Notes: generated by a model from the sequence alone, not told the origin. Positions 4,024 through 27,256 are shown, numbered from the stretch's first letter. The stretch: DNA of 39,900 bases from Candidatus Kapaibacterium sp. (GCA_044339945.1 JBIIUN010000003.1:1-39900), one strand, 5' to 3'. Numbers and translations: made by a program.

Positions 4024-5280
4024 TCAGGCCGGCAGATACAACGTCACGCAGGTTCCGCGGCCGGGAACGGTGGTGAAGTGCAGCGCGGCGCGGGTTTCGA
4101 GCACGGCGCGATAGACGACCGGCAACCCCAGACCGGTGCCCTCGCCGCTGGGCTTGGTGGTCAGGCTTTCCCGGAACAGCCGCGGAACCAAGTCGGCGGG
4201 AACGCCCGGGCCGTCGTCCCGGACGGCGATGGCGACGAACGGCGGCTGGTTCAGGAAATTGTCCCGCAGCCAGAAGGAGAGCCCGCCGCCGGGGGTGGGC
4301 GTGACAGCCGGCAGCGCGTCCCGGACGGTCCAGCACTCGATGTCCACGCGGTGGGGGCGGCCGGATGCCTGGAGCGCGTTGAGGCCGAGATTGCTGATCA
4401 TCCGGAACACGTCCGCGGCGCTGGCCTGGAGCAGGACCGGGGCAAGCGGCGGTTGGACGCGCAGCTGGTGGCCCTTGGCGGAACGGTGCGAGCGCAGCAG
4501 GTGGCCCAGGTCCTCCAGCACGGCCTTGGCATCGCACCGATCCTGGTCCTGGTTCCGCCGGAGCAGCCGCATGCTGCGCCGGGAAATCTCGATGGCCATC
4601 AGGCTCTGGTGCCTGAGGTCCAGCAGCAGTTCCTGGAACTGCTGGTTGGCCATCCGGACGCCGGTCAACGTCTGGGAAAGTTCGAGGGAAAGCGTCTCCG
4701 CCAGCGAGCTGATCACCGTGAGCGAGCCGTTCAGGTCGTGCAGGGCGCCGGCGTAGATGTCCCGTTCCATCCGGAAGGACTCAGCCTGGTGGGCCTGCTG
4801 CTCCAGCAGGGCCTGGTGCTCCCGTTCTTCGCGCCGGACTTCGGCCCGGGCACTGGCCTGGAGGACCAGCTCCCGGAGAACTGACACCTCAAACGGCTTC
4901 CGTAGGGCGGCAAAGATTTCGTCGTGCGCGGTCCGGGTGGTCAGGTCCAACGAAGGATCGGTGCCGAGCAGGATGGTCTGGGCCTCGGGCTGCAGGTGGT
5001 GAACACGCTGGGCCAACTCCCAGCCGGACATGCCGGGCAGGTGTCCGTCCACGATGACGACGTCGTGTCGCGCTTGGCCGAGGAATTCCAGGGCCGCGGC
5101 GCCGGAATCGCAGGCGCTGACCGCGAAGTCGTTCTGGAAAATCTGTTCCATGGCCTGCCGCACCAGCGGGTCGGCCTCGACGAGCAGCAATCCGGGCCGG
5201 CGGGCAGAGGCGACGGCGGCGCCGGCTGCCGGGCGGAGGTCCCGCCCGGCCGCGGGCGCGGTCTGCATTGGAGGATTCAT
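4024..5280 (-). CDS. Hybrid response regulator (receiver) - histidine kinase
   Basis: ATG at 5280 overlaps the upstream TGA (ATGA). REC: VIVDGHLPGMSG ... RKPF, with an atypical acidic pair LLLVEAD. H-box ALHDLNGSL, N-box NLGLNALQA, G1 DDGPGV, G2 GTGLGL. Confidence 0.85.
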   Translation of the reverse strand: MNPPMQTAPAAGRDLRPAAGAAVASARRPGLLLVEADPLVRQAMEQIFQNDFAVSACDSGAAALEFLGQARHDVVIVDGHLPGMSGWELAQRVHHLQPEAQTILLGTDPSLDLTTRTAHDEIFAALRKPFEVSVLRELVLQASARAEVRREEREHQALLEQQAHQAESFRMERDIYAGALHDLNGSLTVISSLAETLSLELSQTLTGVRMANQQFQELLLDLRHQSLMAIEISRRSMRLLRRNQDQDRCDAKAVLEDLGHLLRSHRSAKGHQLRVQPPLAPVLLQASAADVFRMISNLGLNALQASGRPHRVDIECWTVRDALPAVTPTPGGGLSFWLRDNFLNQPPFVAIAVRDDGPGVPADLVPRLFRESLTTKPSGEGTGLGLPVVYRAVLETRAALHFTTVPGRGTCVTLYLPA

Positions 5281-6542
5281 GACGTGGAGAGCAATTTTTC
5301 CCAAAGCCGCTCGTTGGTCATCAGGCGGGCGAGGAAGTCGCCGCCCTTCTCCGTGACGGATCCTTCCAGACGGTCGAGCGGCAGCCGGATGCTGTAGCGG
5401 AGGCCCCCCTCAGGGCGAGCCTGGACTTCGATCCGGCCGCCGTGGTGGTGCACGATGAAGAACGACGCCATCAGGCCGATGCCGAAGTCATTGGGTTGGT
5501 CGGTGCGGGTGAAGAACGGGTCGAACACCGACCGGAGGGCCTCCTCGGGCAGGCCGGGGCCATTGTCGCTCAGGGACAGTTCCAGTTCGGCCGGGGCGGT
5601 GGCCGAGGCGTCCACGGAGCGGGCATCGAGTTCGAGGATGTGCCCGGACTGGAGGTTGTTCAGTTCCTCGCGCAGCAGCAGTTCGAACATCCGGGGGAAT
5701 CGCTCGCCGTCGACCTTCAGCTTGGGCAGCCCCGCTGGCACCCGGTTGATGACGGTGATTCCCTTGGCCCGGAATGCGTCCCGGAGCCCATCGAGGGCCG
5801 TGCCCAGCAACGCCGCGGCATCGACCTCATGGCGGGGCAGGGGGGCCGGCGGTTCCGTGAACTGCGTGACGCCGTCGAGCACCTCGATGACGGCCTTGAG
5901 GCGACCCTGCACCTTGCTGTGGAAGTCGTGCCAGAAGCTGGGGTGCTGGAGCCGGTCGAGGTCCAGCCGCTCGCGGTGCAGCATCTCGGGCGTGAGCTCG
6001 AGGAACGTGCGCACCGCGGCCATCGAATTGCGGAGGTTGTGGCTGAGGCCCGAAGCCATCACGCCGAGGCCGAGCACCCGGTCGGTGATGACCATCTTGT
6101 GGAGGACCGAAAGTTTCTCGCGGAGCAGCGCGTCGCGTTCGCGCTGGAGCAGGAAGAATTCGAGCGCCCGCTTGATGGTGATCTCGAGCGAGTCGAAGTC
6201 GAACGGCTTGGAAACGTATTTGTAGATGGCGCCGCTGTTGATGGCGGCGACCGCGGCGTCCATGTCCGTGTAGGCCGTGGCCAGCATCCGGATGATGCGG
6301 GGCTGGAGCTTGCGGGCCTGTTCCAGCAACTGGACGCCCTGCATGCCGGGCATGCGTTGGTCGGAGATGATCACCCCCAGCTCGTCCTGGTGCTCCCGGA
6401 GCAGGCGGAGGCCCTCCTCGCCGCTCGGCGCGGTGAGCAGCCGGAGGTTCGGGGCCAGGATCTTGGTCACGTTCCGCAGCGACTTCTCCTCGTCGTCCAC
6501 GTAGAGGACGGCGAAGCGTTTGTAGTCGTAGGTGGGTTCCAT
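5277..6542 (-). CDS. Receiver + degenerate histidine-kinase protein, PhcQ/PhcR-like
   Basis: Start ATG 6542 (MEPTYDYKRF); the longer ORF-track start lies inside the upstream gene. Canonical REC (YVDDE, ISDQRMPG, ATAY, SKPF). H-box SHNLRNS, G1 DNGPGL, F-box FDPFFT, G2 GIGL, but no canonical N-box (FELLLREE). Confidence 0.85.
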   Translation of the reverse strand: MEPTYDYKRFAVLYVDDEEKSLRNVTKILAPNLRLLTAPSGEEGLRLLREHQDELGVIISDQRMPGMQGVQLLEQARKLQPRIIRMLATAYTDMDAAVAAINSGAIYKYVSKPFDFDSLEITIKRALEFFLLQRERDALLREKLSVLHKMVITDRVLGLGVMASGLSHNLRNSMAAVRTFLELTPEMLHRERLDLDRLQHPSFWHDFHSKVQGRLKAVIEVLDGVTQFTEPPAPLPRHEVDAAALLGTALDGLRDAFRAKGITVINRVPAGLPKLKVDGERFPRMFELLLREELNNLQSGHILELDARSVDASATAPAELELSLSDNGPGLPEEALRSVFDPFFTRTDQPNDFGIGLMASFFIVHHHGGRIEVQARPEGGLRYSIRLPLDRLEGSVTEKGGDFLARLMTNERLWEKLLSTS

Positions 6543-6562
6543 TTGAACTGGTTTCGAGGGTT

Positions 6563-9343
6563 CTACACTTGGGAATCCGCGGCAAACTCCAAAACAAACT
6601 CGCAGAATTCGCCCGGCCGGCTGTTCACGCGGATCCGCCCGCCGGATTCCTCCATGATGCGGTAGCAGATGCTCAGCCCGAGGCCCATGCCGGACCCGAC
6701 CGCCTTGGTGGTGAAGAAGGGGTCGAAGATCCGTGACAGGAGGTCGGCCGGGATGCCGGGGCCGTTGTCGCGGACCGAGATGAAGGGCACGGCGCCCGCG
6801 AGGCCGGCCCGCACCCGGACCTCGCCCGGCGGCGCGTCGGCCGGGCGTGCCTTGAGGGCGTCGAGCGAGTTTTGGATCAGGTTGATCAGCACCTGGAGCA
6901 ACTGGTTGGCGTTGGCCCGCACGGAGAGGCCATCGGGCACATCCAGTGACAACTTGACCCGCTCGTTGAGCTCCGCCGCGAAAAGCCGGGGCAGGCGGTT
7001 GAGCGTTTCCCGGGCTGAAATCGCCTCGACCGGGCCGCCGTGGCTGTGGGTGAAGGAGCGAAGATCGGCCACGATGTTGGAAACCCGCTTCAAGCCGTCC
7101 TCGGCATCCGCGACGGATTCCTTGAAGTCCGCCTGTTCGTCGGCGGGGAGCTGGGGGGCGGCCCGGCGGATCAGCACCATCGCGCCGAGGGCGTAATTCA
7201 GCGGGTTGTTGATCTCGTGGATGATGCCGGCGCACAGCCGCCCGAGGGAGGCCAGCTTCTCCGTCTGGACGAGCTGCGTCTCGGTTTCCTTGAGCTGTTC
7301 GAGGGCGGTTTCGAGGCGGCGGTTCTGCCAGCTCAGTTCCTTCTGGAGCTGGTGGGAGTCCACCAGGTTCTTCAGCCGCAGCCGGAGTTCCTGGGACGAA
7401 AAGGGCTTGGGCAGGAAGTCGCTGGCGCCCGCGGCGAGGGCTTGGAGCTTCGTTTCCTCGTCCGCCCGCGCGGTCAGCATCAAGAACGGCTGGGACCGGG
7501 TGGCGGCCTGCTTCCGCAGCTCGCGGCAGACGCTGAGGCCGTCGCGTCCCGGCATCATCATGTCACAGACCATGATCTCCGGCAGCATCTGGGTGGCGAG
7601 GCTGAGCGCCTGGTTGCCGTCCACCGCCTCGATGACCTCGTAGTCCTCGGCGAGCTGGCTCTTCAGGAAGCGCAGCATGTCCGGTTCGTCGTCGGCGAGC
7701 AGCAGCTTCGGACGCCGGCGGTTGCCGGCCGCGGGAGTCCAAGGGCGCAGCGAATCCTTCAGCGGGGCGATGCCGGAGAACATTTCGGCGCGCCGGTAGA
7801 GGCCTTCCAACCAGGCATCCTTGGGTTCCGCGGGCTGGGCGGTGGCGGCGGCGTCGGTGGCGGCCACGGCCTTGGATTCCGCCACCGCGGCGACCTCGGC
7901 CGACGTGGCCAGGGGCAGGCGCACGATCATGGTGGTGCCCCGGCCCAAGGTGCTTTCCGCGCCGACGGACCCGCCGTGGGCCTCCACCAGCTCCTTCACC
8001 AGCGACAAGCCGATGCCGGCGCCCTGGAACTTGCGCTGGGTGGAGGAATCGGCCTGCCAGAAGCGGTCGAAGATGAACGGCAACTGCTGCGGGTTGATGC
8101 CCATGCCGGTGTCCCGCACGGCGATGACGGCGAGGGCGCCCTCGCGGTGCGCGTGGATGGCCACCTCGCCGCCGGCCGGGGTGAACTTCACCGCGTTGAA
8201 GAGCAGGTTCAGGAACACCTTCTCCAGCTTGTCGGCGTCGCCCAGCAGATGCGCCACGTCGTCGGCCACCTGACATTGAAGACGCAGCCCCTTCTCGTCG
8301 GCGACGCCCCGCAGGGCCCGGAGCAGGCCCCTGAGGAAGTCCGCGGCGGGCACCGGCGCGGGTTGCAGCTTGAGGGTGCCGGAGTCCAGGCGGACGAGTT
8401 CGAGCAGGTCGTTGATCAGCTTCAGCAGGCGCATGCCGTTGCTGTGCATCGTGTCGAGGTGCTCGCGGACGGCCGGTTCGGCCAGCGAGGCGTGGCTGCC
8501 GCGGAAGGTTTCCAGCGGGGCGATCAGCAGGGTGAGCGGCGTCCGGAGCTCGTGGCTGATGTTGGCGAAGAAGCGGCCCTTGGACTCGTCGAGTTCCCGG
8601 AGCCGGTTGTTGGTCTGTTCGAGGTCCTGCTCGCGGAGCTTCAGCTCGAGGTTCGAGCTTTCGAGCTTGTGCTGGCTGGACTGGAGGCTGCGGTTGGTTT
8701 CGGCGAGCCGTTGCTCGCTCAGCTTCAACTCCTCCCGCGCGATGAATTCCCGGCGGCGCAGGCGATTGAAGAACACGTTGCCGGTCACCACGATGATGCC
8801 GGTCAGGGTCAGGAAGTAGAGGTTGTTGAAACCGTCGCCCGCCCGGAACGCGCCGCCGTGGACGACGCAGGCAATCACGTAGAACGCGACGATCAGGCCG
8901 CTGACCACGAGGGATTCCACCAGGTTCCAGTGGACCACCACGTTCACGGCCAGGAGCACGAGGTTCAGCCCGGCGTAGTAGGGGGAATCCCAGCCGTCGG
9001 TCTTGGCGATCATGACCGCGATGAACGCGGACGGGATCAGCGCCAGGGTGGGGCCGATGATCCGCGCGTAGCGTTCCCCGCGCGGCACGCGGAGCACCGC
9101 CCAGAGGCCCAGCGCGAGCGCCGAACTGATGAGCCGCAGGATGAGGAATTCCCCGACTTTGCCATCACTGCCGTAGACTAGGAAATCTAGCGACACGCCG
9201 GCCGGCATGAGCACCGCGATGAGCAGCGCGCCCACCTTGCCCATGCGCACCCGCTGGACCTGTTCGTCCGCGGCGAAGGCGTCGCGGAGCCCCGGATCGC
9301 GGGCCAGCAGGTCGTCAGGCGATTCCTGGCTTGCGGACTTCAA
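6563..9343 (-). CDS. Membrane hybrid sensor kinase: multi-TM sensor - HisKA/HATPase - REC - HisKA/HATPase (PhcS-like, expanded)
   Basis: About 6 hydrophobic segments, then a coiled coil. First kinase: FANISHELRTPL, NAVKF, DTGMG, GAGIGL. REC: LADDE, CDMMMP, PKPF. Second kinase: GIIHEINNPL, NLIQNS, DNGPG, GMGLGL. The TTG start at 9343 is uncertain. Confidence 0.9.
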   Translation of the reverse strand: MKSASQESPDDLLARDPGLRDAFAADEQVQRVRMGKVGALLIAVLMPAGVSLDFLVYGSDGKVGEFLILRLISSALALGLWAVLRVPRGERYARIIGPTLALIPSAFIAVMIAKTDGWDSPYYAGLNLVLLAVNVVVHWNLVESLVVSGLIVAFYVIACVVHGGAFRAGDGFNNLYFLTLTGIIVVTGNVFFNRLRRREFIAREELKLSEQRLAETNRSLQSSQHKLESSNLELKLREQDLEQTNNRLRELDESKGRFFANISHELRTPLTLLIAPLETFRGSHASLAEPAVREHLDTMHSNGMRLLKLINDLLELVRLDSGTLKLQPAPVPAADFLRGLLRALRGVADEKGLRLQCQVADDVAHLLGDADKLEKVFLNLLFNAVKFTPAGGEVAIHAHREGALAVIAVRDTGMGINPQQLPFIFDRFWQADSSTQRKFQGAGIGLSLVKELVEAHGGSVGAESTLGRGTTMIVRLPLATSAEVAAVAESKAVAATDAAATAQPAEPKDAWLEGLYRRAEMFSGIAPLKDSLRPWTPAAGNRRRPKLLLADDEPDMLRFLKSQLAEDYEVIEAVDGNQALSLATQMLPEIMVCDMMMPGRDGLSVCRELRKQAATRSQPFLMLTARADEETKLQALAAGASDFLPKPFSSQELRLRLKNLVDSHQLQKELSWQNRRLETALEQLKETETQLVQTEKLASLGRLCAGIIHEINNPLNYALGAMVLIRRAAPQLPADEQADFKESVADAEDGLKRVSNIVADLRSFTHSHGGPVEAISARETLNRLPRLFAAELNERVKLSLDVPDGLSVRANANQLLQVLINLIQNSLDALKARPADAPPGEVRVRAGLAGAVPFISVRDNGPGIPADLLSRIFDPFFTTKAVGSGMGLGLSICYRIMEESGGRIRVNSRPGEFCEFVLEFAADSQV

Positions 9344-10721
9344 GGTAGATGTTGACGCCGGTGACGTCGGCTTGGGTGGTGACCGCCCCGGGCGGCGCCG
9401 CGAGCGGGTGCAGGCGTTTCAGCTGTTCCCGGTCCCGGTGGATCAGATGCCATTCGAGCAGGAACTCCATGCCGTTCCGGGCCGGGTTGCACGAATCCAC
9501 GTTGGTGACGATCAGCAGGCCGCCCGGGGCCAGCATGTCGTAGAAGATGTTGACCAGCCGCTGGCAGATCCGATCGGACAGGTAGTCAAACAGGCCGGCA
9601 CAGTAGACGAGGTCGTATTGCGGGGCCGACGGGTCGATGCGGGCCGACTCCTTGAGGATCTGGTGGACCGACTTGCGCTGGAACGTGAGCCCGGTGGCCC
9701 GTTGGTGCTGCTGCTTCAGGGCGGTCAGCTTCTCCTGGCTGAACTCCAGGGTCTCGTCGTTGAAATCCACCAGCGTGAAGTCCGCGGCGTCGCACACCGG
9801 CTCCTCTGCCAGGCATTGCTGCACCTCGCCGGCCGGGCCGCAGCCGAGGTTGAAGATCCGCAGGCGACGGCCCGCGGCGACGGCCCGCGTGGTTTCGGCC
9901 ACGATTTGCCGGCGGAGGTAAGCGATGCGGTTGCGATGCGCCTCGGCCGGGGCCTGGGTGAGAAACCAGGCGTGGACTGCCTTGGCGAACAGCGAGCCGC
10001 CTTCCAGCGCCCGCGACAGGATCATGTTCACCATCAAATAGTCGCCGGCGTAGCCCAGTGGCTTCTGGAAGGTGCGGTAGGCGAACGGCGCGCAGAGCAC
10101 CAGCGGGTGCAGCAGCCGCCGCATGTAGGTGCGGTGCATCGCGTGGGCCGAGATGTCCACCGCGCCGGCGATGGTCTCGAACCGCACGAACAGCTCATTG
10201 AAGGCCGGCCCGACCGGCGGGCCGATTTCCGTGATGATTTCCTGCTCCCGGCGCAGGAGGTCGTTCGTCGGCAGGGAACGCAGGCCCAGTTCGACCTGTT
10301 CCAGCCAGCGGCGGAGGTCGGTGAACATGCTGTGCATGTCGGCGACCACGATCTTGAACTCGGGGCTGACGGCGTGGATTTTGGCCGCCTCCCGCATGAA
10401 GCCGGAGAGTTCGTTCCGCAATTGGTCCGGCTCCGTGAGCGGCGAGAACAGGTCGACGTCTAGCCACGACTCCTCCAGCGCCGCCTCGCACACGAGCATG
10501 ATGCCGGCGTTGACGAGGTTGCTGACGACCGCGCGGCCGGAATAGACGAGCCGTTCGCCGATGCTGATCCGGAAATCCAGCAGGACCTCGGACAGCTGGA
10601 GGATGCTGTAGGGATTGTAGACTTCGAAGACCGCGGCGAAGCGATTGAGGCGGACCGGGGTCGCCTGAATCTCAGCCCCCTGGCTGTTGCGGCAACTGAT
10701 GATGGTATCGCGTTCGATCAC
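9315..10721 (-). CDS. phcB: Class I SAM-dependent methyltransferase, PhcB-like (3-hydroxy fatty acid methyl ester signal synthase family)
   Basis: Motif I NLGCGPAGE, post-I VDFN, YDLVYCAGLFDYL, LAPGG. The family-type motif KPLGYAGDY.MVNMI and N-terminal RNSQG.E..AT..RL.R...VFEVY are recognised from memory. Sits directly upstream of the sensor kinase and receiver-kinase genes, as in phcBSRQ. Probable start GTG 10721 (ORF track starts at 10823). Confidence 0.75.
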   Translation of the reverse strand: MIERDTIISCRNSQGAEIQATPVRLNRFAAVFEVYNPYSILQLSEVLLDFRISIGERLVYSGRAVVSNLVNAGIMLVCEAALEESWLDVDLFSPLTEPDQLRNELSGFMREAAKIHAVSPEFKIVVADMHSMFTDLRRWLEQVELGLRSLPTNDLLRREQEIITEIGPPVGPAFNELFVRFETIAGAVDISAHAMHRTYMRRLLHPLVLCAPFAYRTFQKPLGYAGDYLMVNMILSRALEGGSLFAKAVHAWFLTQAPAEAHRNRIAYLRRQIVAETTRAVAAGRRLRIFNLGCGPAGEVQQCLAEEPVCDAADFTLVDFNDETLEFSQEKLTALKQQHQRATGLTFQRKSVHQILKESARIDPSAPQYDLVYCAGLFDYLSDRICQRLVNIFYDMLAPGGLLIVTNVDSCNPARNGMEFLLEWHLIHRDREQLKRLHPLAAPPGAVTTQADVTGVNIYLEVRKPGIA

Positions 10722-10794
10722 GGTGCTGGTGTGGACCCGACCGGGCTTGGCCGGCGGGAGAAATGGCGAACTCCCGACAGCCGACACGAGGGCG

Positions 10795-10823
10795 AACCTA
10801 AGGGGCCGGCCGGACAATCCCAA
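10795..10823 (-). promoter_or_regulatory. Possible sigma70-type promoter for the phcB-like operon
   Basis: Minus strand TTGGGA-N17-TAGGTT in the fadL-phcB gap; weak match. Confidence 0.25.
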
Positions 10824-10879
10824 GCGGGAAGTCCGGCCGCCTCAGGCTCGGTTCCGTGAGTCCGGCGGGTGTGTGGCCG

Positions 10880-12121
10880 CTAGAAGCGGCAGCCCACCGT
10901 GATGAAGATCGCGTGGCTGATGAACTCGTAGCGGCCGTCGGCGGATTGGCCGAGCGGGGAAACGAGGCTGCCGGCCACCGTCCGGGTCGGCCCATAGCCG
11001 AACTGGTAGGCCACGTCGAAGTCCAGCCGCTCGCCGCGGTGACCGACACCCACGCTCCAGAAGTGCCGGTCCAAGTCGGCCACCAGCGGGTTGTAGGTCA
11101 CGTCCGGCACCGAGTTTTCGTTGTAGATGTAGCCGCCGCTCACCGTCCAGCCATTGTCCAGGTAGCGGGTCGCGCCGAATTCGTAGTAGAAGCTGGATTC
11201 CCAATGGAACGGCAGCGGCAACGGGTTGGCCGGCAGGCCGGGGACCGCCTGTTGCTGGATGACGAAGGTGTTGAGCCGGTTCCAGTCGGTCCAATCCACG
11301 TTGAACTCCAGGTTCCAGGCGGGCGTGGGGCGGAACGAAAGTCCCGCGACGATATTCTGCGGGAACTTCCACTCGGAGCTCGCCGTCGGATTCAGCCCCA
11401 ACAAGTTCCAAGTCGTGTCCCCCTTGAGTTCCACGGTGGTGGCGCTTCGGTAGTTGAGCCCGAACTGGAACTGGGGATTGATCTTCCACATCAGCCCGGC
11501 GTTGAAACCCGCCGACCAGCCGTTGCCCTCGAACCTCAATTGGTCGCCCAGTCCGGCCGCGGGCGTCGCGAAGCCTTGGCGCAGGGCGGTATCGACGAAG
11601 TTCACCATCGGCCCCGCCGCAATCGACAGGCTGGGCGTGATTTCCCAGGCGATGACCGGATTGATCGTGAAGTAGCTCAGGCGGCCACGGATGCCGACGG
11701 TGCGGAAGCCTGTGTCCTCCGGCCATTCGTTGCTCAGCCCGAACGGCGAATAGAGGCCCAGGCCGTAGGCCAAGGGCAGGGATTCGGACTTGTAGGTGTA
11801 GAACAGTTGCGGGACCGCATGCAGGTCGTTGCGGTTGTCGTATTCCTGGCCGCCGGGCGCGGTGTAGTCGCTGTCCGTCTTGATGCCGAAGACGCCGCCG
11901 CGAAATTGCTGCCCTTCCAGTTGGGTGATGCCCGCCGGATTGTAGAAGATGGCGGACGCATTGTCGGCCGTGGCCGCAAAGGCCTCGCCCCGGGCGGTGG
12001 CAAAGGCATCCTGGTCGGGCAGCCGGAAGCCGGTGCCCAAGGCGGGCAACGTGCAGGCCAGGGCGGTGGTGGCGGCGGTGAAACGCCGGCAGAGGTGATG
12101 AGGAGTGGGGTGGATCTTCAT
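10880..12121 (-). CDS. fadL: FadL/OmpP1/TodX outer-membrane long-chain fatty acid (hydrophobic compound) transporter
   Basis: Signal peptide, then GFRLPDQDAFATARGEAFAATADNASAIFYNPAG (hatch NPA motif) and YSPFGL...W. Alternating beta-strands and a C-terminal Phe. Confidence 0.9.
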   Translation of the reverse strand: MKIHPTPHHLCRRFTAATTALACTLPALGTGFRLPDQDAFATARGEAFAATADNASAIFYNPAGITQLEGQQFRGGVFGIKTDSDYTAPGGQEYDNRNDLHAVPQLFYTYKSESLPLAYGLGLYSPFGLSNEWPEDTGFRTVGIRGRLSYFTINPVIAWEITPSLSIAAGPMVNFVDTALRQGFATPAAGLGDQLRFEGNGWSAGFNAGLMWKINPQFQFGLNYRSATTVELKGDTTWNLLGLNPTASSEWKFPQNIVAGLSFRPTPAWNLEFNVDWTDWNRLNTFVIQQQAVPGLPANPLPLPFHWESSFYYEFGATRYLDNGWTVSGGYIYNENSVPDVTYNPLVADLDRHFWSVGVGHRGERLDFDVAYQFGYGPTRTVAGSLVSPLGQSADGRYEFISHAIFITVGCRF

Positions 12122-13220: not shown

Positions 13221-13757
13221 ATGAAAGCCCTCAAGAAAACACTCGTGGTCATCGCGGGCGTCATCGCCTTGCTCGTCATAATCGGCCTGTTTCTGCCCAA
13301 GACCTACCACGTCGAGCGTTCGGCGGTGATCAATGCCCCGGCCGACAAAGTTTACCCGTTCATCTCCACCTTCCGTCGCTGGCCGGAGTGGATTGCCTGG
13401 ACCACCAACAAGTATCCCGACATGACCATGAAGTTCGGTGACACTGACACCGGGGTCGGGGCCGGCTATTCGTGGGCGGGGAAGTCGAGTGGCAACGGCG
13501 CGATCACGTTCACCGCCTTGGACCCGGGCAAGAGCATCGGTTACCACCTCGACTTCGAGAACGGCCAGTATCTGTCCACCGGCACGATCAGCTTGGTGCC
13601 CGATGGCTCCGCGATGAAGGTCACCTGGACCAACGACGGCGATCTTGGGGCCAGTCCGATCGGCCGCTGGTTTGGCCTGTTCATGGATCGCATGATGGGC
13701 CCGGATTTCGCCTAGGGATTGGCCAACTTGAAGACGCGGGTCGAAGCCGCAAAGTGA
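13221..13757 (+). pseudogene. SRPBCC (polyketide cyclase/START-like) protein with an in-frame TAG at 13713-13715, 13 sense codons before the expected stop
   Basis: N-terminal TM, YHVERSAVINAP, GVGAGYSW.G, VTWTN.G. Reading through the TAG gives GPDFA*GLANLKTRVEAAK-TGA(13755-13757), the usual C-terminal helix of this family. Confidence 0.7.
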
Positions 13758-13775: not shown

Positions 13776-14711
13776 TCAGGGCAACGGGGTCGTTCGCGCC
13801 GCGGTCACGAGGTGATACCAGTCCGCGTGGGACAGGTTCAGCGCATCGGCCGCCGCGGCGGCGCGGATACGGGCCGGATCGGTCGAACCGACGACGGGTT
13901 GGATGCCGGCCGGATGCCGCAGCAGCCAAGCGAGGGCGACGGCTTCCCGGGTTGCGCCGAGGGCTCCGGCGAGACGGTCCAGCATGGTGTTGACCCGCGT
14001 CGGCTCGTAGCCGCGCTGGCCCGGCAGCAAGCCGTGAACGTGGGAGCCCAGCAGGCCGCCGGCGAGCGGGCTCCACGCCATGGGCGTGATCGTCTCCGCG
14101 AGGCACTGGTCCAGCGTGCCGTCTTCCAGCGCGGCGAGCTGAAGCAGGCTGAGTTCGACCTGATTGACGGCCAAGGGCAGCGGGCACAGCCGTTGCAGGG
14201 CTGTCACCTGGCTGGGACGGAAATTACTCACGCCGAACTCGCGCACCTTGCCGGCGTCGCGCAGTTGGACAAAGGCGCCGGCCACGGCGTGGGGATCCAT
14301 GAGGTAATCGGGCCGGTGCAGCATCAGCAGGTCGAGGGTTTCGATGCCCAGTCGGCGCAGCGAGCCCTCGACGCTGGTCACGATGTATTCGGTGGTGAAA
14401 TCATAGCGGACCGGCGTGCCCGCGGGTTCCCCGGCCCGCCGGATGCCGCACTTGCTGGCAATCAGGATGCGCGCGCGAAGCTCCGGGGCCGCCCGCAGCG
14501 CCTCGCCGAAGATCTCCTCGCAGCGCCCGCCGCCGTAGATGTCGGCCAAGTCGAACATCGTGTAACCCGCGTCGGCCGCGGCGTGGACCGCGCGGATGCC
14601 GACGGCGCTGGTGGGTTCCGGCGGCTGGCCTTCGGAGCCGGCGAGGCGCCAGCAGCCGTAGGCCAAGCGGGAGGCGACGAGGGCGCTGCGCCCGAGACGG
14701 AGGGTTTTCAT
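13776..14711 (-). CDS. Aldo/keto reductase (YdhF-like)
   Basis: Start ATG 14711 (MKTLRLG). Motifs YGCWRL, FDLADIYG, IASKCG, LLMLHRPD, GVSNF, NQVELS, AWSPLAGG, LAWLLRHP. Confidence 0.92.
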   Translation of the reverse strand: MKTLRLGRSALVASRLAYGCWRLAGSEGQPPEPTSAVGIRAVHAAADAGYTMFDLADIYGGGRCEEIFGEALRAAPELRARILIASKCGIRRAGEPAGTPVRYDFTTEYIVTSVEGSLRRLGIETLDLLMLHRPDYLMDPHAVAGAFVQLRDAGKVREFGVSNFRPSQVTALQRLCPLPLAVNQVELSLLQLAALEDGTLDQCLAETITPMAWSPLAGGLLGSHVHGLLPGQRGYEPTRVNTMLDRLAGALGATREAVALAWLLRHPAGIQPVVGSTDPARIRAAAAADALNLSHADWYHLVTAARTTPLP

Positions 14712-14834
14712 GTGCGGACGGACCGTGAAACCGGCCGTCTTCGGGTGAAAGCCCAAAGGCGCACGCGGGTCGGAGCCACTTGAACTAGGCAATCTCTTCG
14801 GAGTGCAGCAAGATCCCGCCGGCCATCCTGATTT

Positions 14835-15569
14835 GTGAACTCAACTCAGCCAGCAACCGCCCCGGCGCAGGACGGCTTCGGTTTTCCCGAGACTGCGTGG
14901 AGCACGATCCTGCGGGCCCGGCAGAATTCCGCGGACGAACGCTTCGCCGCCGTGCAACGGCTATGTGAGCGTTACGAGCCAGCCATCCGCCGGAGCTTCC
15001 AGAAGACCGCTGGGCCGGAAATGGACGTGGATGAACTGGTCCAAGGCTTCTTCACCGAGAAGTTTTTGCGCCCACAGTTTCTGGCCAATTTGGAACGGGA
15101 CGGCGGACGTTTCCGCGACTTCATCCGGCAATGCCTGCGCAACTACCAGCGCACGGCGTGGCGGCGTTCGGTCCGCCACAGCCACCATGAAGTCATCGGG
15201 GCGGAGGCGACCGAACCAACTTCGGAAGCGCCCGGTCCTGACGTTGCGCTGGACCGGGAATGGGCGCGGCAGATTTTGGAACTGGCCCGCGCCCGGCTGC
15301 GGTCCGAAGCGGAGGCGGGCGGTTTTCTTGAACTGTGTTCCCATCTCGAAGCCCAACTGGACGGGGCTACTGACCTGCCCGGTCAGGCCGAATTGGGGCA
15401 GCGTCTGGGCAAGTCGCCCAACGCCGTGGCAGTCGCCCTTCACCGGTTGCGCGAACGCTACGGCTGGCTGCTGCACGATGAAATCCGCCAGACAGTGGCC
15501 GATCCCACCCGCTGGCGAGAGGAACGCGACCACCTGCTTGCGATCCTCAATTCGGTTGGAACGCCATGA
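14835..15569 (+). CDS. ECF RNA polymerase sigma factor, kinase-associated type
   Basis: N-terminal F.xT.WS extension (FPETAWST). Region 2 DVDELVQGFF ... GRFRDFI, then DREWA, and region 4 HTH AELGQRLGKSPNAVAVALHRLRERY. Stop overlaps the kinase start (ATGA). Confidence 0.88.
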   Translation: MNSTQPATAPAQDGFGFPETAWSTILRARQNSADERFAAVQRLCERYEPAIRRSFQKTAGPEMDVDELVQGFFTEKFLRPQFLANLERDGGRFRDFIRQCLRNYQRTAWRRSVRHSHHEVIGAEATEPTSEAPGPDVALDREWARQILELARARLRSEAEAGGFLELCSHLEAQLDGATDLPGQAELGQRLGKSPNAVAVALHRLRERYGWLLHDEIRQTVADPTRWREERDHLLAILNSVGTP

Positions 15570-17863
15570 CCTTCGAGGAGTTGGCCCAGGCGCGGGAGGG
15601 CAGTCCGCTCGGGGCGTTGCCGCTTTCGGCACCATTGCCCGAGGAATTCCGCCTGGTTGGTGAGGACTATGTGCTGCTCGAACGGTTGGGCGAAGGCGGT
15701 ATGGGGGAAGTCTGGTGGGCGCGGCAACTGAGCACCGGGCGGGAGGTGGCTGTGAAGCTCCTACGGCGCGGACATTCGGATGCGCGTTTCGCGCAAGAGG
15801 TGGCGGCCCTGGCCAAACTGGAGCATCCCGGAATCGTGAAACTGTTCCAGGCCGGGCAGCACGAAGGTCGCCCGTTCCTGGTGTTGGAACTGATTGCGGG
15901 GCCAACCGTGGCACAGTTGCTCCAAGCCGGTCCGCTGGAGCCGCGCATGGCGGCCCAGGCGGTAAAGGAAGCCGCCGAAGCCCTCGCCGCGGGCCACTCC
16001 CAAGGACTCATTCACCGGGATCTCAAACCTTCAAACCTGCTCCGCGATGCGGCGGGCCGGGTGCGGGTGACCGACTTCGGCCTGGCCAAGGACCTGACGG
16101 CAGGGCGCGACTTGACCCTGACGGGCGAACAGTTGGGCACGCCCGCCTACATGGCCCCGGAACAGGTGGATTCTCGTCGCGGTGTCGTGGGGTCCGCCGC
16201 GGATGTTTACGGGCTGGGTGCGACCCTGTTTCACACGCTCACTGGGCGGCCGCCTTTCGACGGTGCGACCACGGCGGAGATTCTTCACCATGTGATGACC
16301 CGGGAACCCGACTGGCATACCGGTTGGGAGCGCGTGCATCGTGACCTGCGAACGATTTGCCAGCGGGCCATGCACCGGGAACCCGGCCGCCGTTACCCCG
16401 GCGCTGCCGAACTCGCGGCGGAACTCGGCCGTTTCCTCGCCGGCGAACCGATTCACGCCCGGCCGATGTCCCTGGCCGAACGCGCGTGGCGCACCGCCCG
16501 GAAACCTTGGCCCGTGGCCGTCGCGGCCGCGTCGGTGCTGGGCAGTTTGCTCGCGGCCCTTTTGTTGCCGGTGTTGAACCGGAGCCAGACCCGGGCGTTG
16601 GTTTCGGGGTGGCCGCGGGCCAACCCGACCGCGCTTCATGTCCTCAACACTCCCAGCCGGGCGGGCTCGGGCCGATTTGTGTCGTTCTCAGATGTGAAGG
16701 GCTTGATGGCCATTGGCGGTTCGGAACGCCGGGTGCGAATTGCAGCCCTTGATCCGTGGCGTCCGTTGACTGGCAGCCTTCTGCTCTCGAATCGGGTCAG
16801 CTTCCACGTCTTCCAGCCCGGTGAGCCCATTCTGCTGACCGTCGAGGAATCCGGGCGCTGGAAAATCGCCCTCGTTGATCCCATCTATCGCGAAGGCATC
16901 AGCGACCAAATGAGCACCAACGTCACCCGGGTCGCCTACAGCCGCGAGGGCCATCACTGGGCGCTGGGCTCCGCGGCCGGCGAGGTGGATGTGCGGGCCT
17001 TCACCGAGCGTCAATTCCGCCGGCCGTTCCAGACCCGACATGACGGGGCGGTCACTGCCCTTCAGTTTGACGAGACCGCCAGTCGGCTGCTGACGGCCTC
17101 AGCCGACCGCACGGTCCGACTCTGGGATCTCGCGACTCAACAGCCATTGCAGACTTGGAGCGCCGACGCGCGCTTTGTGGTCGCTGGTTTCGCGGCCGGC
17201 GATTCGCTGGTGTATGCGGCCCACGTCCGAAGTCGCAGGAGTTCCGTCACCCGCCTGTTTCGGACTGCCGACGGTTCCTCGGTGGCGACCAATCATTTCT
17301 CGGGTGAACTGACCGGGCTTCAGTTGAGCCCGGACGGCTCCCGACTGATCGCCTTGTCCAGTGAGCGCTGGGCCGAAATCTGGGATGTTCGAGATCTGAC
17401 CGTCATCGCCAAGACCAGCGAGCATCCCGAACCACTCACGACCGCTTCAGTCAGTGCCGACGGCTTGCGCCTGTTGACCGTGGATGCCAGCGGCAGCGCC
17501 CGGCTCTGGGACGCCCACACCGGCGAGCCGCTAAGCGACTTCTGGCGTGGGCCGGCTGGTATCCGGCACGCCGCCTTTGCCCCCGACGGAATCCGCATTG
17601 GCTCCGGCGATGTCGGCCCCACCGGCACCCTTTGGGACGCGAGTTGTCCCCTGCCGGTCGGTTGGGATCGGGAAGCTTTGCTCCGCGCCCTGTTGCGCGA
17701 CGGGCGCCTTCCCTCCTTGCGGCGGGCGGCCTGGCTCGCCCCGGAAAATGCCGACGTGCTGAACCGGCTCGCGACTGCCACGGCGGTCGATGAACCCCAG
17801 CCCCGGGGCCAGCCGGAAGCGGATTTTCTCCGCCAGCGTGCGGCGCGGTTGTCCCCTCGATGA
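15566..17863 (+). CDS. Hanks-type Ser/Thr protein kinase - TM - WD40 repeats
   Basis: GEGGMGEV, VAVK, HRDLKPSN, DFG, GTPAYMAPEQ, DVYGLG. TM segment VAVAAASVLGSLLAALLL. WD repeats LLTASADRTVRLWD and GSARLWD. Confidence 0.93.
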   Translation: MTFEELAQAREGSPLGALPLSAPLPEEFRLVGEDYVLLERLGEGGMGEVWWARQLSTGREVAVKLLRRGHSDARFAQEVAALAKLEHPGIVKLFQAGQHEGRPFLVLELIAGPTVAQLLQAGPLEPRMAAQAVKEAAEALAAGHSQGLIHRDLKPSNLLRDAAGRVRVTDFGLAKDLTAGRDLTLTGEQLGTPAYMAPEQVDSRRGVVGSAADVYGLGATLFHTLTGRPPFDGATTAEILHHVMTREPDWHTGWERVHRDLRTICQRAMHREPGRRYPGAAELAAELGRFLAGEPIHARPMSLAERAWRTARKPWPVAVAAASVLGSLLAALLLPVLNRSQTRALVSGWPRANPTALHVLNTPSRAGSGRFVSFSDVKGLMAIGGSERRVRIAALDPWRPLTGSLLLSNRVSFHVFQPGEPILLTVEESGRWKIALVDPIYREGISDQMSTNVTRVAYSREGHHWALGSAAGEVDVRAFTERQFRRPFQTRHDGAVTALQFDETASRLLTASADRTVRLWDLATQQPLQTWSADARFVVAGFAAGDSLVYAAHVRSRRSSVTRLFRTADGSSVATNHFSGELTGLQLSPDGSRLIALSSERWAEIWDVRDLTVIAKTSEHPEPLTTASVSADGLRLLTVDASGSARLWDAHTGEPLSDFWRGPAGIRHAAFAPDGIRIGSGDVGPTGTLWDASCPLPVGWDREALLRALLRDGRLPSLRRAAWLAPENADVLNRLATATAVDEPQPRGQPEADFLRQRAARLSPR

Positions 17864-17956: not shown

Positions 17957-18220
17957 GCCGCGAAGCCGCCTGACCCAAACCACCGGACCCAGCCTCCGCG
18001 CCTGAGCCCGCGCGAAGCGGAGGTCGCCGCGTGGCTGGGTGAGGACGATACCTACGCCCAGATCGCCGCGCGGCTCGGGTTGAAACACGACACCGTGCGC
18101 GGACACGCGCGGGCCATTTTTGCCAAGCTCGGCGTGCGCACCCGTCCGGCGGCCGTCGCCCGGCTGCTGGGCCAAGGCATTGGGGCTACGCAAAAGGGGA
18201 GGATTGACTGCCAGTGTTAG
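17954..18220 (+). CDS. Stand-alone LuxR/GerE-type helix-turn-helix regulator
   Basis: LSPREAEVAAWL...TYAQIAARLGLKHDTVRGHARAIFAKLGVRTR; no receiver or ligand-binding domain. Confidence 0.82.
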   Translation: MAAKPPDPNHRTQPPRLSPREAEVAAWLGEDDTYAQIAARLGLKHDTVRGHARAIFAKLGVRTRPAAVARLLGQGIGATQKGRIDCQC

Positions 18221-18290
18221 TATCCGTGTGACTTCTATTCATGCCCCTTTCCTTCGATCCCAGTCTGGTTCCGGCAACCCCTGCACTTTC

Positions 18291-21200
18291 ATGAGAAACC
18301 GCAGCCCCAGTCTGTTCTTTAACCGCTTGGACTGGATGGGATGTTTTCTGGCGAGCTTGGCCCTCATTGGATGCCTTACCACCCAGGCCGCCGACTTGGT
18401 TATTCGTGACATCCAGGTGCGGCCGGACCAGCCGGTTCAAATCCGGGTGCCGGCCAGCTTGGACGCCTACTACGTGCTCTATCGGGGTGAGCAGGTTCAG
18501 CAAATCATCCTGCCCCGGGACATGCGGCTCGGCGCCGGCGCTGAAGTGACCCTGACGGACCCGGTTCCCCGACCCGATACGGCCTTTTACCGCATTGAGC
18601 AGGTGCCCATCGCCACGCCGCGCGACACGGACGGCGACGGCATGGATGACGTCTTTGAACTGCGGCACCCCACGGCCTGCAAACCATTGGTTGCCGATGC
18701 GAGTCTGGATCCCGACGGGGACGGTAAGACCAACCGGGAGGAATACCTGCTGGGCACCGACCCCGGGACGCCCAACGTTCCTCCGGCCGTCCGGCTGGTG
18801 GCACCCAACGATCTGGCCGTGCTCTTTTTGCCCGGACCATTCGACCTTGTCGCGGAAGCCTCGGACGCCGAGGGACCGCTTTCCTCGGTGGACTTTCTGG
18901 CCGGCGACATCCTCCTCGCGACGCGGACCAACGCTCCCTTCGCCTTCTCCTGGACCAACGCGCCCGTGGGCACCAATCGGCTCACCGCCCGGGCCACCGA
19001 TCAATTCGGCGCCCGCGCCACCTCAAGCCCGGTCACCGTCCGAATCCGGTTTCCCAATGCGCTCCCCAACGTGGCGATCACCGCTCCGGAAACCAACTCG
19101 CTCCACGCCTTGCCGGTCGCCATCGAGGTGATGGTCGCGGCGAGCGACTCCGAAGGCCCGGTGGAATCGGTCCGGATCTTTTTCAACCGGACCAACCTGC
19201 TGGCCAGCCTCACCAACGTCCCCTTCGCCTTTGGCTGGACCAATGCGCCGTTGGGCACCAACGAACTGACCGCGGTCGCCCTTGACTCCGACGGGGCCAG
19301 CGTCACCTCGGCGCCGGTGAGCATCCGGGTGATCGTCGCCAACCGGGCTCCGGAATTCGCCGCGATCCCGGACGAGGCGGTGGACGAGGAGAAGCCGCTG
19401 AGCCTGAGCCTGAGCGCGACCGATGCCGACGAGCCGCGGCAGACGCTGACCTATGGTCTGGTCAGCGGTCCCGCGGGCTTGAGCGTGACCGCAGGCGGCG
19501 CCCTGAGCTGGACACCCACCGAGGCCCAGGGCCCGACGAACGTCGCGGTGCGGGTATCGGTGACGGACGGACTGTTGAGCGTGACCAATCAGTTCACGGT
19601 CGCCGTGCGGGAGGTGAACGTGGCGCCCGTGCTGGCGGCGATCCCGGACCGCGCGGTGGACGAACTCACGCCGCTGGCCTTGGCCCTGAACGCAACGGAC
19701 GCCGACGAGCCGCGGCAGATGCTGACCTATGGCCTGGTCAGCGGTCCCGAGGGCGTCGCCGTGACGTCTGGCGGCGCCCTGAGCTGGATGCCCACCGAGG
19801 CCCAGGGCCCGACGAACGTCGCGGTGCGGGTGTCGGTGACGGACGGACTGCTGAGCGTGACCAACCGGTTCAACGTGGCGGTGCGCGAAGTCAATGAGCT
19901 GCCAACATTCTTGGGACTGACCAATCAATCCATTCCCGAGCTGTCATCCTTCGCCCTGCCGCTGGCCGCCACTGACCCAGACCTACCAACCCAAAACCTT
20001 TCGGTCGCCTGGGTCGCTGGACCGGCTGGGTCGGGCGTGACCAACGGGGTTTTCGCTTGGCTCCCGGACGAACGCCAGGGGCCCTCCACCAACGAGGTGC
20101 GGGTCGTCGTCACTGACGGCCAACGGACCGTTACGAATGCCTTCACCGTGATCGTCACGGAGGTGAACACCGCGCCGGTGTTGGCGCCCGTTGCCAACCG
20201 GACCATTGACCAACTGACCCCATTGGACCTGACGTTGACCGCCACCGACGCCGACGAACCGGTCCAAGCCCTGACCTTCAGCTTGGTGAACGGGCCCGCC
20301 GACCTGACTGTGACTCCAGCCGGGCGGGTGTCCTGGGCTCCTCGACCGGCCCAGTTCCCCAGCACCAATGTCGTCGCTGTGCGTGTCGGCGACGGGCAGG
20401 ACTTCGCCACGAATACGTTCACGGTTTTCGCCCTGCCGGTGGACATACCGCCCACGGTGACCCTGACCGAACCCCTCGGCAGCGTCGCCTATGCGGCGCC
20501 GGGTTATGTGAAGCTCCATGCGGAGGCCCGCAGCACCAACGCCGCCATCGCCCGGGTCGAGTTTCTGGCGGGCACCAACGTCATCGGCACCGTCACGGCG
20601 CCACCCTACCGCTTCAACTGGGATGCCGTGCCGGCCGGGGAATACGTCATCACTGCCCGCGCGGTGGATACCCAGGGTGTCGCCGCCACCAATGGCGTGC
20701 CCACGCTCGTCAAGGTCACGCCGCTGGACACCGAACCGCTGACCACCTTCGCCAGCTCCCCGACGGCGGGCGAAACCGGCGTGGCGGTGACCCGCGAGAC
20801 CGTGCTCCGGTTTACCTGCCCGCTGCGCGACGACGCCACTGTGAGCCTCGACCGGTTTAATGCCGTGGCCAACGGACGCCGCGTGCTGTCCCGCATCGAG
20901 CTTTCCACCGACCGGCGCACCGCCACGCTGTTCTATCTGGAGAACCTGCCCGCCAGCAGCCGTGTGCGGGTGACCTTCAATGGCACGGGAATTTTCGACT
21001 GCCTGGGCCGCGCGGTGGATGCCGACGGCGACGGCCAGCCCGGCGGCATCGCGGAATTCGACTTCGACACGCTGGCGACCGTGGCGGTGGCCCGGACGGC
21101 GATCAGCGGGCGGGTGTTTGCCTCCGAACCGGTGTCGGGTGCGGGCACGACCAACTTCCTCAACCGCCCGCTCCAGGGCGTCACCATCACGGTGGACGGC

Positions 21201-27091: not shown

Positions 27092-27256
27092 CGTCGGCTG
27101 CCGAGACTTGGCTTCGAGCGTGAGGTGCTGGCCCCCTTACCGCGCGAAATTGTGTCATCGCCACTTGGACCAACAACAACGACGTCCCACCCGGCCTGTT
27201 CGTCGCCCGAATCCGTGCCAAGGCCCGGTGGCGCTTCACCGATCGGGAAAGGGACT

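Follow-up and report, generated by a model that had tools for sequence, protein, structure and literature searches.

A PhcB-family methyltransferase linked to a double-kinase membrane sensor: a candidate lipid methyl ester signalling module widespread in Verrucomicrobiota

A 39,900-nucleotide (nt) stretch of DNA deposited under Candidatus Kapaibacterium sp. (GCA_044339945.1 JBIIUN010000003.1:1-39900; hereafter "the window", that is, the whole stretch at its full length) carries on its minus strand, from 10721 to 4024, a phcB-like cluster of four tightly packed genes that code for a methyltransferase dependent on S-adenosylmethionine (SAM), a membrane-bound hybrid sensor kinase (gene B), and two proteins that join a receiver to a kinase-like domain (genes C and D). 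The host, a soil or water bacterium, is very probably a member of the Verrucomicrobiota, as a preliminary description of the window had proposed: at the nearest related locus (L003, Verrucomicrobiales), the methyltransferase is 97% and TopA 99% identical to that of the window. Together with two upstream genes that code for a short-chain dehydrogenase (SDR) and an outer-membrane channel, the cluster makes up a head-to-tail series of six minus-strand genes (lengths in amino acids, aa):

12995-12168, minus strand: SDR, 275 aa, Pfam adh_short E 1.3e-43
12121-10880, minus strand: FadL/TodX/OmpP1-family outer-membrane channel, 413 aa, Pfam Toluene_X E 2.5e-47
10721-9315, minus strand: PhcB-family SAM-dependent methyltransferase, 468 aa, GTG start at 10721
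9343-6563, minus strand: membrane hybrid sensor kinase (gene B), 926 aa, Pfam HisKA twice, HATPase_c twice and Response_reg
6542-5277, minus strand: receiver and kinase-like protein (gene C), 421 aa, Pfam Response_reg E 6.6e-18, HATPase_c E 4.9e-13
5304-4024, minus strand: second receiver and kinase-like protein (gene D), 426 aa, Pfam Response_reg E 3.4e-16, HATPase_c E 1.9e-15

The methyltransferase gene, whose GTG start agrees with the N-termini of its homologues in the alignment, overlaps gene B by 29 nt, genes B and C are separated by 20 nt, and genes C and D overlap by 28 nt, or abut if gene D starts at the ATG at 5280. The preliminary description had placed a PhcB-like methyltransferase, a multi-transmembrane sensor kinase and two receiver-kinases with tight junctions at 4024..10721, which is borne out by the coordinates, the Pfam matches and these junctions; it had recognised the sensor as a multi-transmembrane kinase and overlooked its two kinase modules and receiver, as well as the FadL gene upstream. 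The G+C content across the operon region is 64-69%. A scan brought up no terminator-like site on the minus strand inside 4024-10721, terminator and promoter scans performing no better than on shuffled sequence, and Rfam and tRNA scans of the window returned no matches.

The methyltransferase within the PhcB family

In Ralstonia, PhcB makes 3-hydroxypalmitic or 3-hydroxymyristic acid methyl ester (3-OH PAME or MAME), PhcS senses the ester through His230, at which it is phosphorylated (PMC11960443), and PhcQ has a receiver only (PMC8578825, PMC10653808, PMC11960443, PMC6989110); these and the other papers cited here are drawn on through excerpts. The window's methyltransferase is a full-length homologue of this synthase and of the same length: it aligns over residues 5-468 with two proteins of Ralstonia pseudosolanacearum that NCBI names PhcB, at 41% (P0263, E 3e-116) and 40% identity (P0270, E 7e-118), and its 468 aa compare with the 464-468 aa reported for PhcB (PMC8578825). 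The Ralstonia proteins were reached stepwise, from the plasmid homologue of Paraburkholderia graminis (39% identical to the window's protein over the full length) to a Cupriavidus homologue (68-69% identity between the plasmid protein and Cupriavidus homologues) and from there to the NCBI-named PhcB (69-70% identity with the Cupriavidus homologue as query). The PhcB-like character ascribed to the enzyme in the preliminary description is upheld by this full-length identity.

An AlphaFold2 model of the methyltransferase, with a mean predicted local distance difference test score (pLDDT) of 87.8, divides it into three domains:

10467-10721, minus strand: predicted N-terminal beta-barrel, residues about 6-82
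9876-10424, minus strand: predicted helical domain, residues 100-282
9318-9863, minus strand: predicted Rossmann methyltransferase domain, residues 287-463

Pfam finds generic class I SAM methyltransferase domains at residues about 287-443, in the C-terminal third, and no Pfam family covers the first 289 residues. Neither NCBIfam nor Pfam holds a PhcB-specific model, and the best NCBIfam matches are to generic models (ArsM-like, BioC and UbiG; E 1e-5 to 5e-4, far under the cut-offs). An alignment of 72 family members from the two clades described below contains 66 invariant columns spread over all three domains, with motifs that include KPLGYAGDY, HRxR, GCGPA, YCAGxFDY and TN; in both clades conservation reaches every domain, the 280 non-catalytic residues of the N-terminal part as well. 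The PDB folds closest to the model are small-molecule O-, C- and N-methyltransferases (SgvM, SibL, DnrK and the uncharacterised 3ocj), and the search for a solved structure of a close relative returned none, with one marginal match to 5doo (E 0.003).

The family is large. A search with the methyltransferase through 5.8 billion proteins gave more than 5,500 matches at E <=0.001 among the 8,000 candidates scored; many of them are named by JGI [quoted passage not shown], the term that databases use for PhcB, and the NCBI names are class I methyltransferases of Verrucomicrobia and other metagenome-assembled genomes (MAGs). Protein searches also found homologues in Paraburkholderia, Massilia, Janthinobacterium and others, and a profile search of 1.84 billion representatives of 50%-identity clusters counted 1,420 PhcB-family members at E <=1e-30. 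A plasmid collection yielded a single full-length homologue, that of Paraburkholderia graminis, the remaining 27 matches being partial.

A quick maximum-likelihood tree (IQ-TREE, 36 rows, no Ralstonia row, root unplaced, with a very long outgroup branch) joins the 8 Burkholderiales rows (Cupriavidus, Paraburkholderia, Massilia, Pseudoduganella, Janthinobacterium) into one clade with 100% support in the SH-like approximate likelihood ratio test (SH-aLRT), and groups the window's methyltransferase with L003 and L004 in a large Verrucomicrobiota-type group. Because of the 40-41% full-length identity together with this placement, the enzyme is assigned to the PhcB family but outside the clade of the studied enzymes; judged by sequence, it belongs to a neighbouring clade of that family. 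A position outside the PhcB clade, as in this tree, is an outcome that the preliminary description had itself listed as speaking against its proposal.

Some longer members of the family carry additional N-terminal domains, either a receiver (P0372) or a PilZ domain (P0419, E 2.6e-23; P0431 and others; the members concerned are P0372, P0391, P0404, P0417, P0419 and P0431), which suggests that signal synthesis itself may be under phosphorylation or cyclic di-GMP control in some lineages. In P0418, the PilZ match overlaps the family's own N-terminal barrel. A PilZ identity for the barrel of the window's methyltransferase is no more than a lead, since none of the 72 aligned members matches PilZ at E <=0.1.

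Sensor kinase and receiver proteins

Gene B codes for a sensor composed of four parts:

8729-9343, minus strand: PhcS-type six-helix membrane domain, residues 1-205
7874-8626, minus strand: kinase module 1 with His264, residues about 240-490
7364-7711, minus strand: receiver with Asp594, residues about 545-660
6566-7297, minus strand: PhcS-type kinase module 2 with His709, residues 683-926

The stand-in for PhcS, PhcR and PhcQ was the phcBSRQ-like cluster of the Paraburkholderia graminis plasmid pPHS1_P (L001), in which the genes for a methyltransferase (468 aa), a membrane kinase (445 aa), a receiver (134 aa) and a receiver protein (344 aa) follow one another in this order. The membrane domain of gene B contains about six hydrophobic segments (residues 34-193) and is by itself 36% identical over 146 aa to the PhcS-like protein of this cluster (E 7e-22). 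Kinase module 2 is 36% identical to the same protein over a length of 262 aa (E 1e-45), in an alignment that pairs His709 with His233 of that protein. These matches indicate that gene B carries the same membrane sensor and C-terminal kinase types as the Burkholderiales PhcS-like protein encoded beside PhcB. The key residues of gene B are kept throughout its relatives (His264 in 75/75, Asp594 in 69/69 and His709 in 70/70). A search of the ESM Atlas with the membrane domain returned unnamed clusters and clusters of MASE-type membrane sensors, which is a lead rather than a test.

The key residues of gene C are Asp61, kept in 61/61 relatives, and His168. Its receiver and linker helix are 38% identical over 180 aa to the PhcQ-like protein of the L001 cluster (E ~1e-37), whereas the receiver shares only 23-25% identity with the other receivers of the window. 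Moreover, gene C shares the receiver and kinase architecture of PhcR (PMC8578825, PMC10653808), a position held in the plasmid cluster by the 134-aa receiver alone; it thus appears to carry a PhcQ/PhcR-type receiver in a PhcR-like build. Gene D, with Asp86 and His189 as key residues, has only weak, generic similarity to the PhcQ-like protein (E 4e-6) and is an accessory member of the module. The Phc-like nature claimed for the sensor and receivers in the preliminary description is therefore upheld for the membrane domain, kinase module 2 and the receiver of gene C, all of which match the L001 cluster, and not for the sensor architecture, which is not PhcS-like, nor for the receiver set, which includes no PhcQ-type protein.

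Set against the Ralstonia system as a whole, the cluster has in common the order of synthase, membrane sensor kinase and soluble receiver protein with tight junctions, the receiver and kinase build that gene C shares with PhcR, and receiver proteins without a DNA-binding domain. Conversely, the fourth gene of the cluster codes for a receiver-kinase in place of a PhcQ-type protein, whose receiver has a non-kinase tail, no LysR gene of the PhcA type is seen nearby, a FadL gene is attached, the methyltransferase falls in a separate clade, and the host belongs to a different phylum. The likeness to the Paraburkholderia cluster runs through the methyltransferase (39% identity), the membrane domain (36%), the PhcS-type kinase (36%) and the PhcQ-type receiver (38%), but the plasmid sensor has 445 aa, one kinase module and no receiver, its 134-aa and 344-aa receiver proteins lack kinase domains, and no FadL gene is adjacent.

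Three other systems invite comparison. The best NCBIfam model for gene B is LvrA (residues 217-679, E 5.9e-90, 302 bits against a cut-off of 1200), and genes C and D show weak matches to the LvrB model; Leptospira LvrA/LvrB is likewise a pair of a hybrid kinase and a receiver-kinase, but the match covers only the generic kinase and receiver modules and not the membrane domain of gene B. The Lqs/Cqs systems of Legionella and Vibrio signal through alpha-hydroxyketones, and resemble the cluster in logic, in that the synthase of a lipid-derived signal stands beside a multi-pass sensor kinase and a receiver without a DNA-binding domain, whereas their synthase is an unrelated acyltransferase dependent on pyridoxal phosphate (PLP). 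The diffusible signal factor (DSF) system RpfF/RpfC of Xanthomonas, likened by description and not by sequence, shares a fatty-acid-type signal and a multi-pass membrane hybrid kinase with an internal receiver, and differs in its crotonase-family synthase, RpfF, and its HD-GYP output regulator. LqsA, LqsS and LqsR are mentioned in an excerpt of PMC10653808 and RpfC in one of PMC6989110.

Conservation and gene neighbourhood

The linkage of these genes was surveyed in one genome per species (GTDB representatives), at the best 80 of at least 590 confirmed relatives drawn from 600 pattern matches; the counts come from tblastn of the window's domains against the 80 loci, and each denominator is the number of loci with enough sequence. 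The 80 loci are from distinct species, with methyltransferase identity down to 49%. As many as 68 are labelled Verrucomicrobiota (Prosthecobacter, Limisphaerales, Chthoniobacterales, Methylacidiphilales, Akkermansiaceae and the cultured strain DG1235), and the module also occurs in Verrucomicrobiales-labelled genomes. The others are labelled Binatota, FCPU426, "delta proteobacterium", Acidobacteriota and others; some of these are short contigs, in which the binning may be wrong.

A PhcS-type membrane domain directly follows the methyltransferase at 76/77 loci, and the full build of gene B (membrane domain, kinase 1, receiver, kinase 2) does so at 62/64. Of the two deviating loci, L034 has the same genes behind an extra 1.6-kb open reading frame (ORF), and L063, a contig of a Verrucomicrobiota MAG with the sensor at 10001-11380 downstream of the methyltransferase, is the sole one of the 64 with a simple PhcS-like build, which may represent an intermediate or a reduced form. 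A C-like gene is present at 62/63 loci, the copy of L034 being displaced, and a D-like gene occupies the window's position at 18/61 (the script counted 19 by taking in the displaced C of L034). The D-like gene is displaced in L063, and in a subclade of five loci that includes the cultured strain DG1235 (L061, L062, L065, L069 and L073) a receiver and kinase gene lies immediately upstream of the methyltransferase, on the same strand, instead of after gene C. The linkage between methyltransferase and kinases, predicted in the preliminary description to be conserved, is far beyond chance, and the methyltransferase-sensor-receiver module is conserved and widespread across much of the Verrucomicrobiota, not rare.

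The channel gene, which lies 158 nt upstream of the methyltransferase gene and also matches the NCBIfam FadL model (E 8e-15, under the model cut-off), recurs less regularly. At 36 of the 66 loci whose upstream sequence extends over 1.5 kb or more, a FadL homologue is found within 1.5 kb upstream of the methyltransferase (in the same orientation at 21 and divergent at 15), in keeping with a long-chain hydrophobic ligand; three Akkermansiaceae-type loci (L075, L076 and L082) have theirs downstream of the C gene. The SDR gene lies on the same strand, 46 nt ahead of the FadL gene. Only the four closest of the 80 loci (L003, L004, L005 and L007) have a counterpart with more than 57% identity at the same relative place; the gene is thus a neighbour specific to this clade and is possibly co-transcribed, and a role in making a 3-hydroxy or 3-oxo acyl precursor would be speculation.

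In 10 of the 80 loci (e.g., L021:7760-8539, plus strand), a NarL/FixJ-type response regulator, made of a receiver and a GerE/LuxR helix-turn-helix, is encoded just upstream of the FadL, methyltransferase, B and C genes and on the same strand. This regulator may supply the DNA-binding output of that clade; no such gene is present in the window.

Around the FadL gene, the window also codes for an SRPBCC/polyketide-cyclase-like lipid-binding protein (13221-13715, plus strand) and an aldo-keto reductase (13776-14792, minus strand), both kept only in L004 among the 80 loci. Past gene D, the plus strand carries the housekeeping genes for YidC, Jag/KhpB and topoisomerase. Elsewhere, a plus-strand ORF of 2,613 aa with bacterial Ig-like (Big_7, Big_9 and Big_5) and TSP3 repeats (18120-25961), within which the G+C content falls to 0.595 at 22001-24000, probably codes for a giant surface adhesin, and three other large ORFs lie on the same strand:

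15566-17863, plus strand: Ser/Thr protein kinase fused to WD40 repeats
27125-29827, plus strand: reprolysin-like M12B metallopeptidase with NHL repeats
33355-38424, plus strand: 1,689 aa, CotH kinase domain, lamin-tail domains and chitobiase C-terminal domains

Proposed signalling circuit and its alternatives

The cluster is in all likelihood homologous to the Phc synthase-sensor module. By analogy with Ralstonia, the favoured reading, to which a probability of roughly 0.6 is given, is that the module produces a methyl ester of the fatty-acid type by which cells signal to one another. Fold matches to small-molecule methyltransferases and the linkage to FadL lend indirect support to such a product. 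The methyltransferase would use SAM to esterify a hydroxy fatty acid taken from fatty-acid or lipid A synthesis, and its product would be a volatile, membrane-permeant methyl ester, as is the case for PhcB with 3-OH palmitate or myristate. The ester would leave and re-enter the cells, crossing the outer membrane with the help of the adjacent FadL-family channel, build up with cell density, and be bound within the six-helix membrane domain of gene B. Binding would alter autophosphorylation at His264, the phosphoryl group would pass from there to Asp594, and Asp594 would in turn control kinase module 2 (His709), which would phosphorylate Asp61 of gene C and perhaps Asp86 of gene D. Lastly, genes C and D would act on targets encoded elsewhere, since neither has a DNA-binding domain, much as PhcR and PhcQ act through PhcA.

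Several observations weigh against the proposal of a diffusible ester signal. An identity of 40% to PhcB does not fix the substrate or the product of the methyltransferase, the Burkholderiales PhcB clade is set off by a branch of 2.53 changes per column with the window's enzyme on the other side, and Gln19 (window 10665-10667) aligns with Arg22 of Ralstonia PhcB, a position that holds Arg in at least 90% of the 72 members and His or Arg in the closest relatives, and at which the R22C exchange lowers or delays signal output in Ralstonia (PMC6989110). For the sensor and receivers, the comparison is with the plasmid cluster of Paraburkholderia graminis as a proxy for the Ralstonia proteins. Moreover, the 926-aa sensor differs from that of Ralstonia in that a full classical kinase module (His264) and a receiver (Asp594) are inserted between its two PhcS-like parts, ahead of the PhcS-type kinase, and this build is the rule at 62/64 loci. 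Further down the chain, the H-box His of gene C is kept in 30/58 relatives and replaced in 28/58, by Gln in 19; phosphotransfer beyond gene C is therefore uncertain, and the so-called kinase domain may be a non-phosphorylatable output or binding domain in many species. Among the window ORFs scanned, neither a PhcQ-type protein (receiver with a non-kinase tail) nor a LysR PhcA-like or other DNA-binding gene is found near the operon, and an all-against-all clustering of neighbouring ORFs brought up no conserved output gene, only the kinases (70 loci) and FadL (37 loci) being widespread. The self-contained circuit of the preliminary description is thus not supported, with no PhcQ-type protein and no DNA-binding output encoded nearby; the lack of a PhcA-type gene in the window says little, because phcA lies outside the phcBSRQ operon in Ralstonia (PMC10653808).

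It is conceivable, if rather unlikely, that the module is a private sensor of envelope or lipid status, in which the methyltransferase esterifies a surplus fatty-acid or lipid A intermediate and the kinase reads the state of membrane biogenesis in the same cell. The presumed PhcB substrates, 3-hydroxy C14/C16 acids, are building blocks of lipid A, the sensor domain of gene B is wholly embedded in the membrane and has no periplasmic domain, in many Verrucomicrobiota the module is almost always present and looks to be inherited vertically, in the manner of a housekeeping circuit, and the SDR gene is co-located in the window's own subclade, all of which would suit such a sensor. Yet the product of the only relatives that have been studied leaves the cell and works from one cell to another (PMC8578825, PMC6989110), and the outer-membrane channel adjacent to the methyltransferase in 36/66 loci suggests traffic across the outer membrane. 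That channel could also be turned the other way, into a system for the uptake and sensing of foreign lipids, in which FadL imports the long-chain fatty acids or esters of other organisms, the methyltransferase modifies or detoxifies them, and the kinases report on them. The import of hydrophobic compounds by FadL-family proteins (a family annotation), the frequency of the FadL linkage and the many large surface or secreted proteins encoded nearby, which suggest a polymer- or particle-attached lifestyle, would all be compatible with this scheme, which is nevertheless judged improbable: FadL is absent from 30/66 loci while the methyltransferase-kinase linkage is almost invariant, so that the core logic appears to lie in the methyltransferase and the sensor, and the precedent of PhcB is the synthesis of a self-made signal.

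The possibility that no diffusible signal exists, and that the enzyme is a CheR-like protein methyltransferase that acts on the kinase or receiver for adaptation, is given very little credence. Weak matches to the Pfam CheR SAM-binding model (E 3.6e-4 for the window's protein; 55/72 members, best E 2.4e-4, all under the cut-off) and the source name "MCP methyltransferase, CheR-type" of one Paraburkholderia homologue point towards it; these matches, however, cover only a generic SAM-binding stretch (residues 364-411), the listed fold matches of the predicted model are all small-molecule methyltransferases with no protein methyltransferase, CheR included, among them, and Ralstonia phcB mutants are rescued by extracellular signal (PMC6989110).

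The reading of the module as a maker and sensor of a methyl ester signal may be extended, tentatively and at odds that are clearly below even. The unit of methyltransferase, double-kinase sensor and receiver-kinase, often with FadL, would be the main means of cell-to-cell signalling of the Verrucomicrobiota and a few neighbouring lineages, would use a lipid methyl ester that is not necessarily 3-OH PAME or MAME, and would relay it through a multi-tier His-Asp-His-Asp cascade without counterpart in the studied Phc systems; Burkholderiales Phc would then be a streamlined offshoot and not the prototype.

Part of this was already known: automatic JGI names call these proteins PhcB, Phc signalling works in Cupriavidus, and phc genes also occur in Hydrogenophaga and "numerous Betaproteobacteria" (excerpts of PMC10653808 and PMC6989110), so that the novelty claimed in the preliminary description for a Phc system outside Ralstonia falls away and that of the phylum stands. 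The search found no paper that treats PhcB relatives in Verrucomicrobia or describes a signal synthase-receptor pair for the phylum, although most subscription journals are outside its coverage and an earlier report is possible. Papers that contain both "phcB" and "Verrucomicrobi" appear, from their listing and from an excerpt of PMC12950752, not to connect the two, and in the available part of a 2026 preprint about uncultivated Verrucomicrobia, quorum sensing comes up only in connection with other taxa. New are the double-kinase sensor, the extra receiver-kinase genes, the linked outer-membrane channel, the lack of a PhcQ- or PhcA-type partner in cis, and the wide conservation in a different phylum.

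In surveys of metagenomes, the number of "phcB" genes cannot be taken to indicate Ralstonia-type signalling or to mark a pathogen. The module offers a natural comparison for ligand recognition by the membrane domain of PhcS and for the workings of receiver-kinases such as PhcR. Verrucomicrobiota abound in soils, fresh waters, the sea and guts, and the module is a concrete and testable candidate for signalling in this phylum; if the proposal holds true, Phc-type signalling would be a large family, with 1,420 cluster representatives, and not a speciality of Ralstonia and Cupriavidus.

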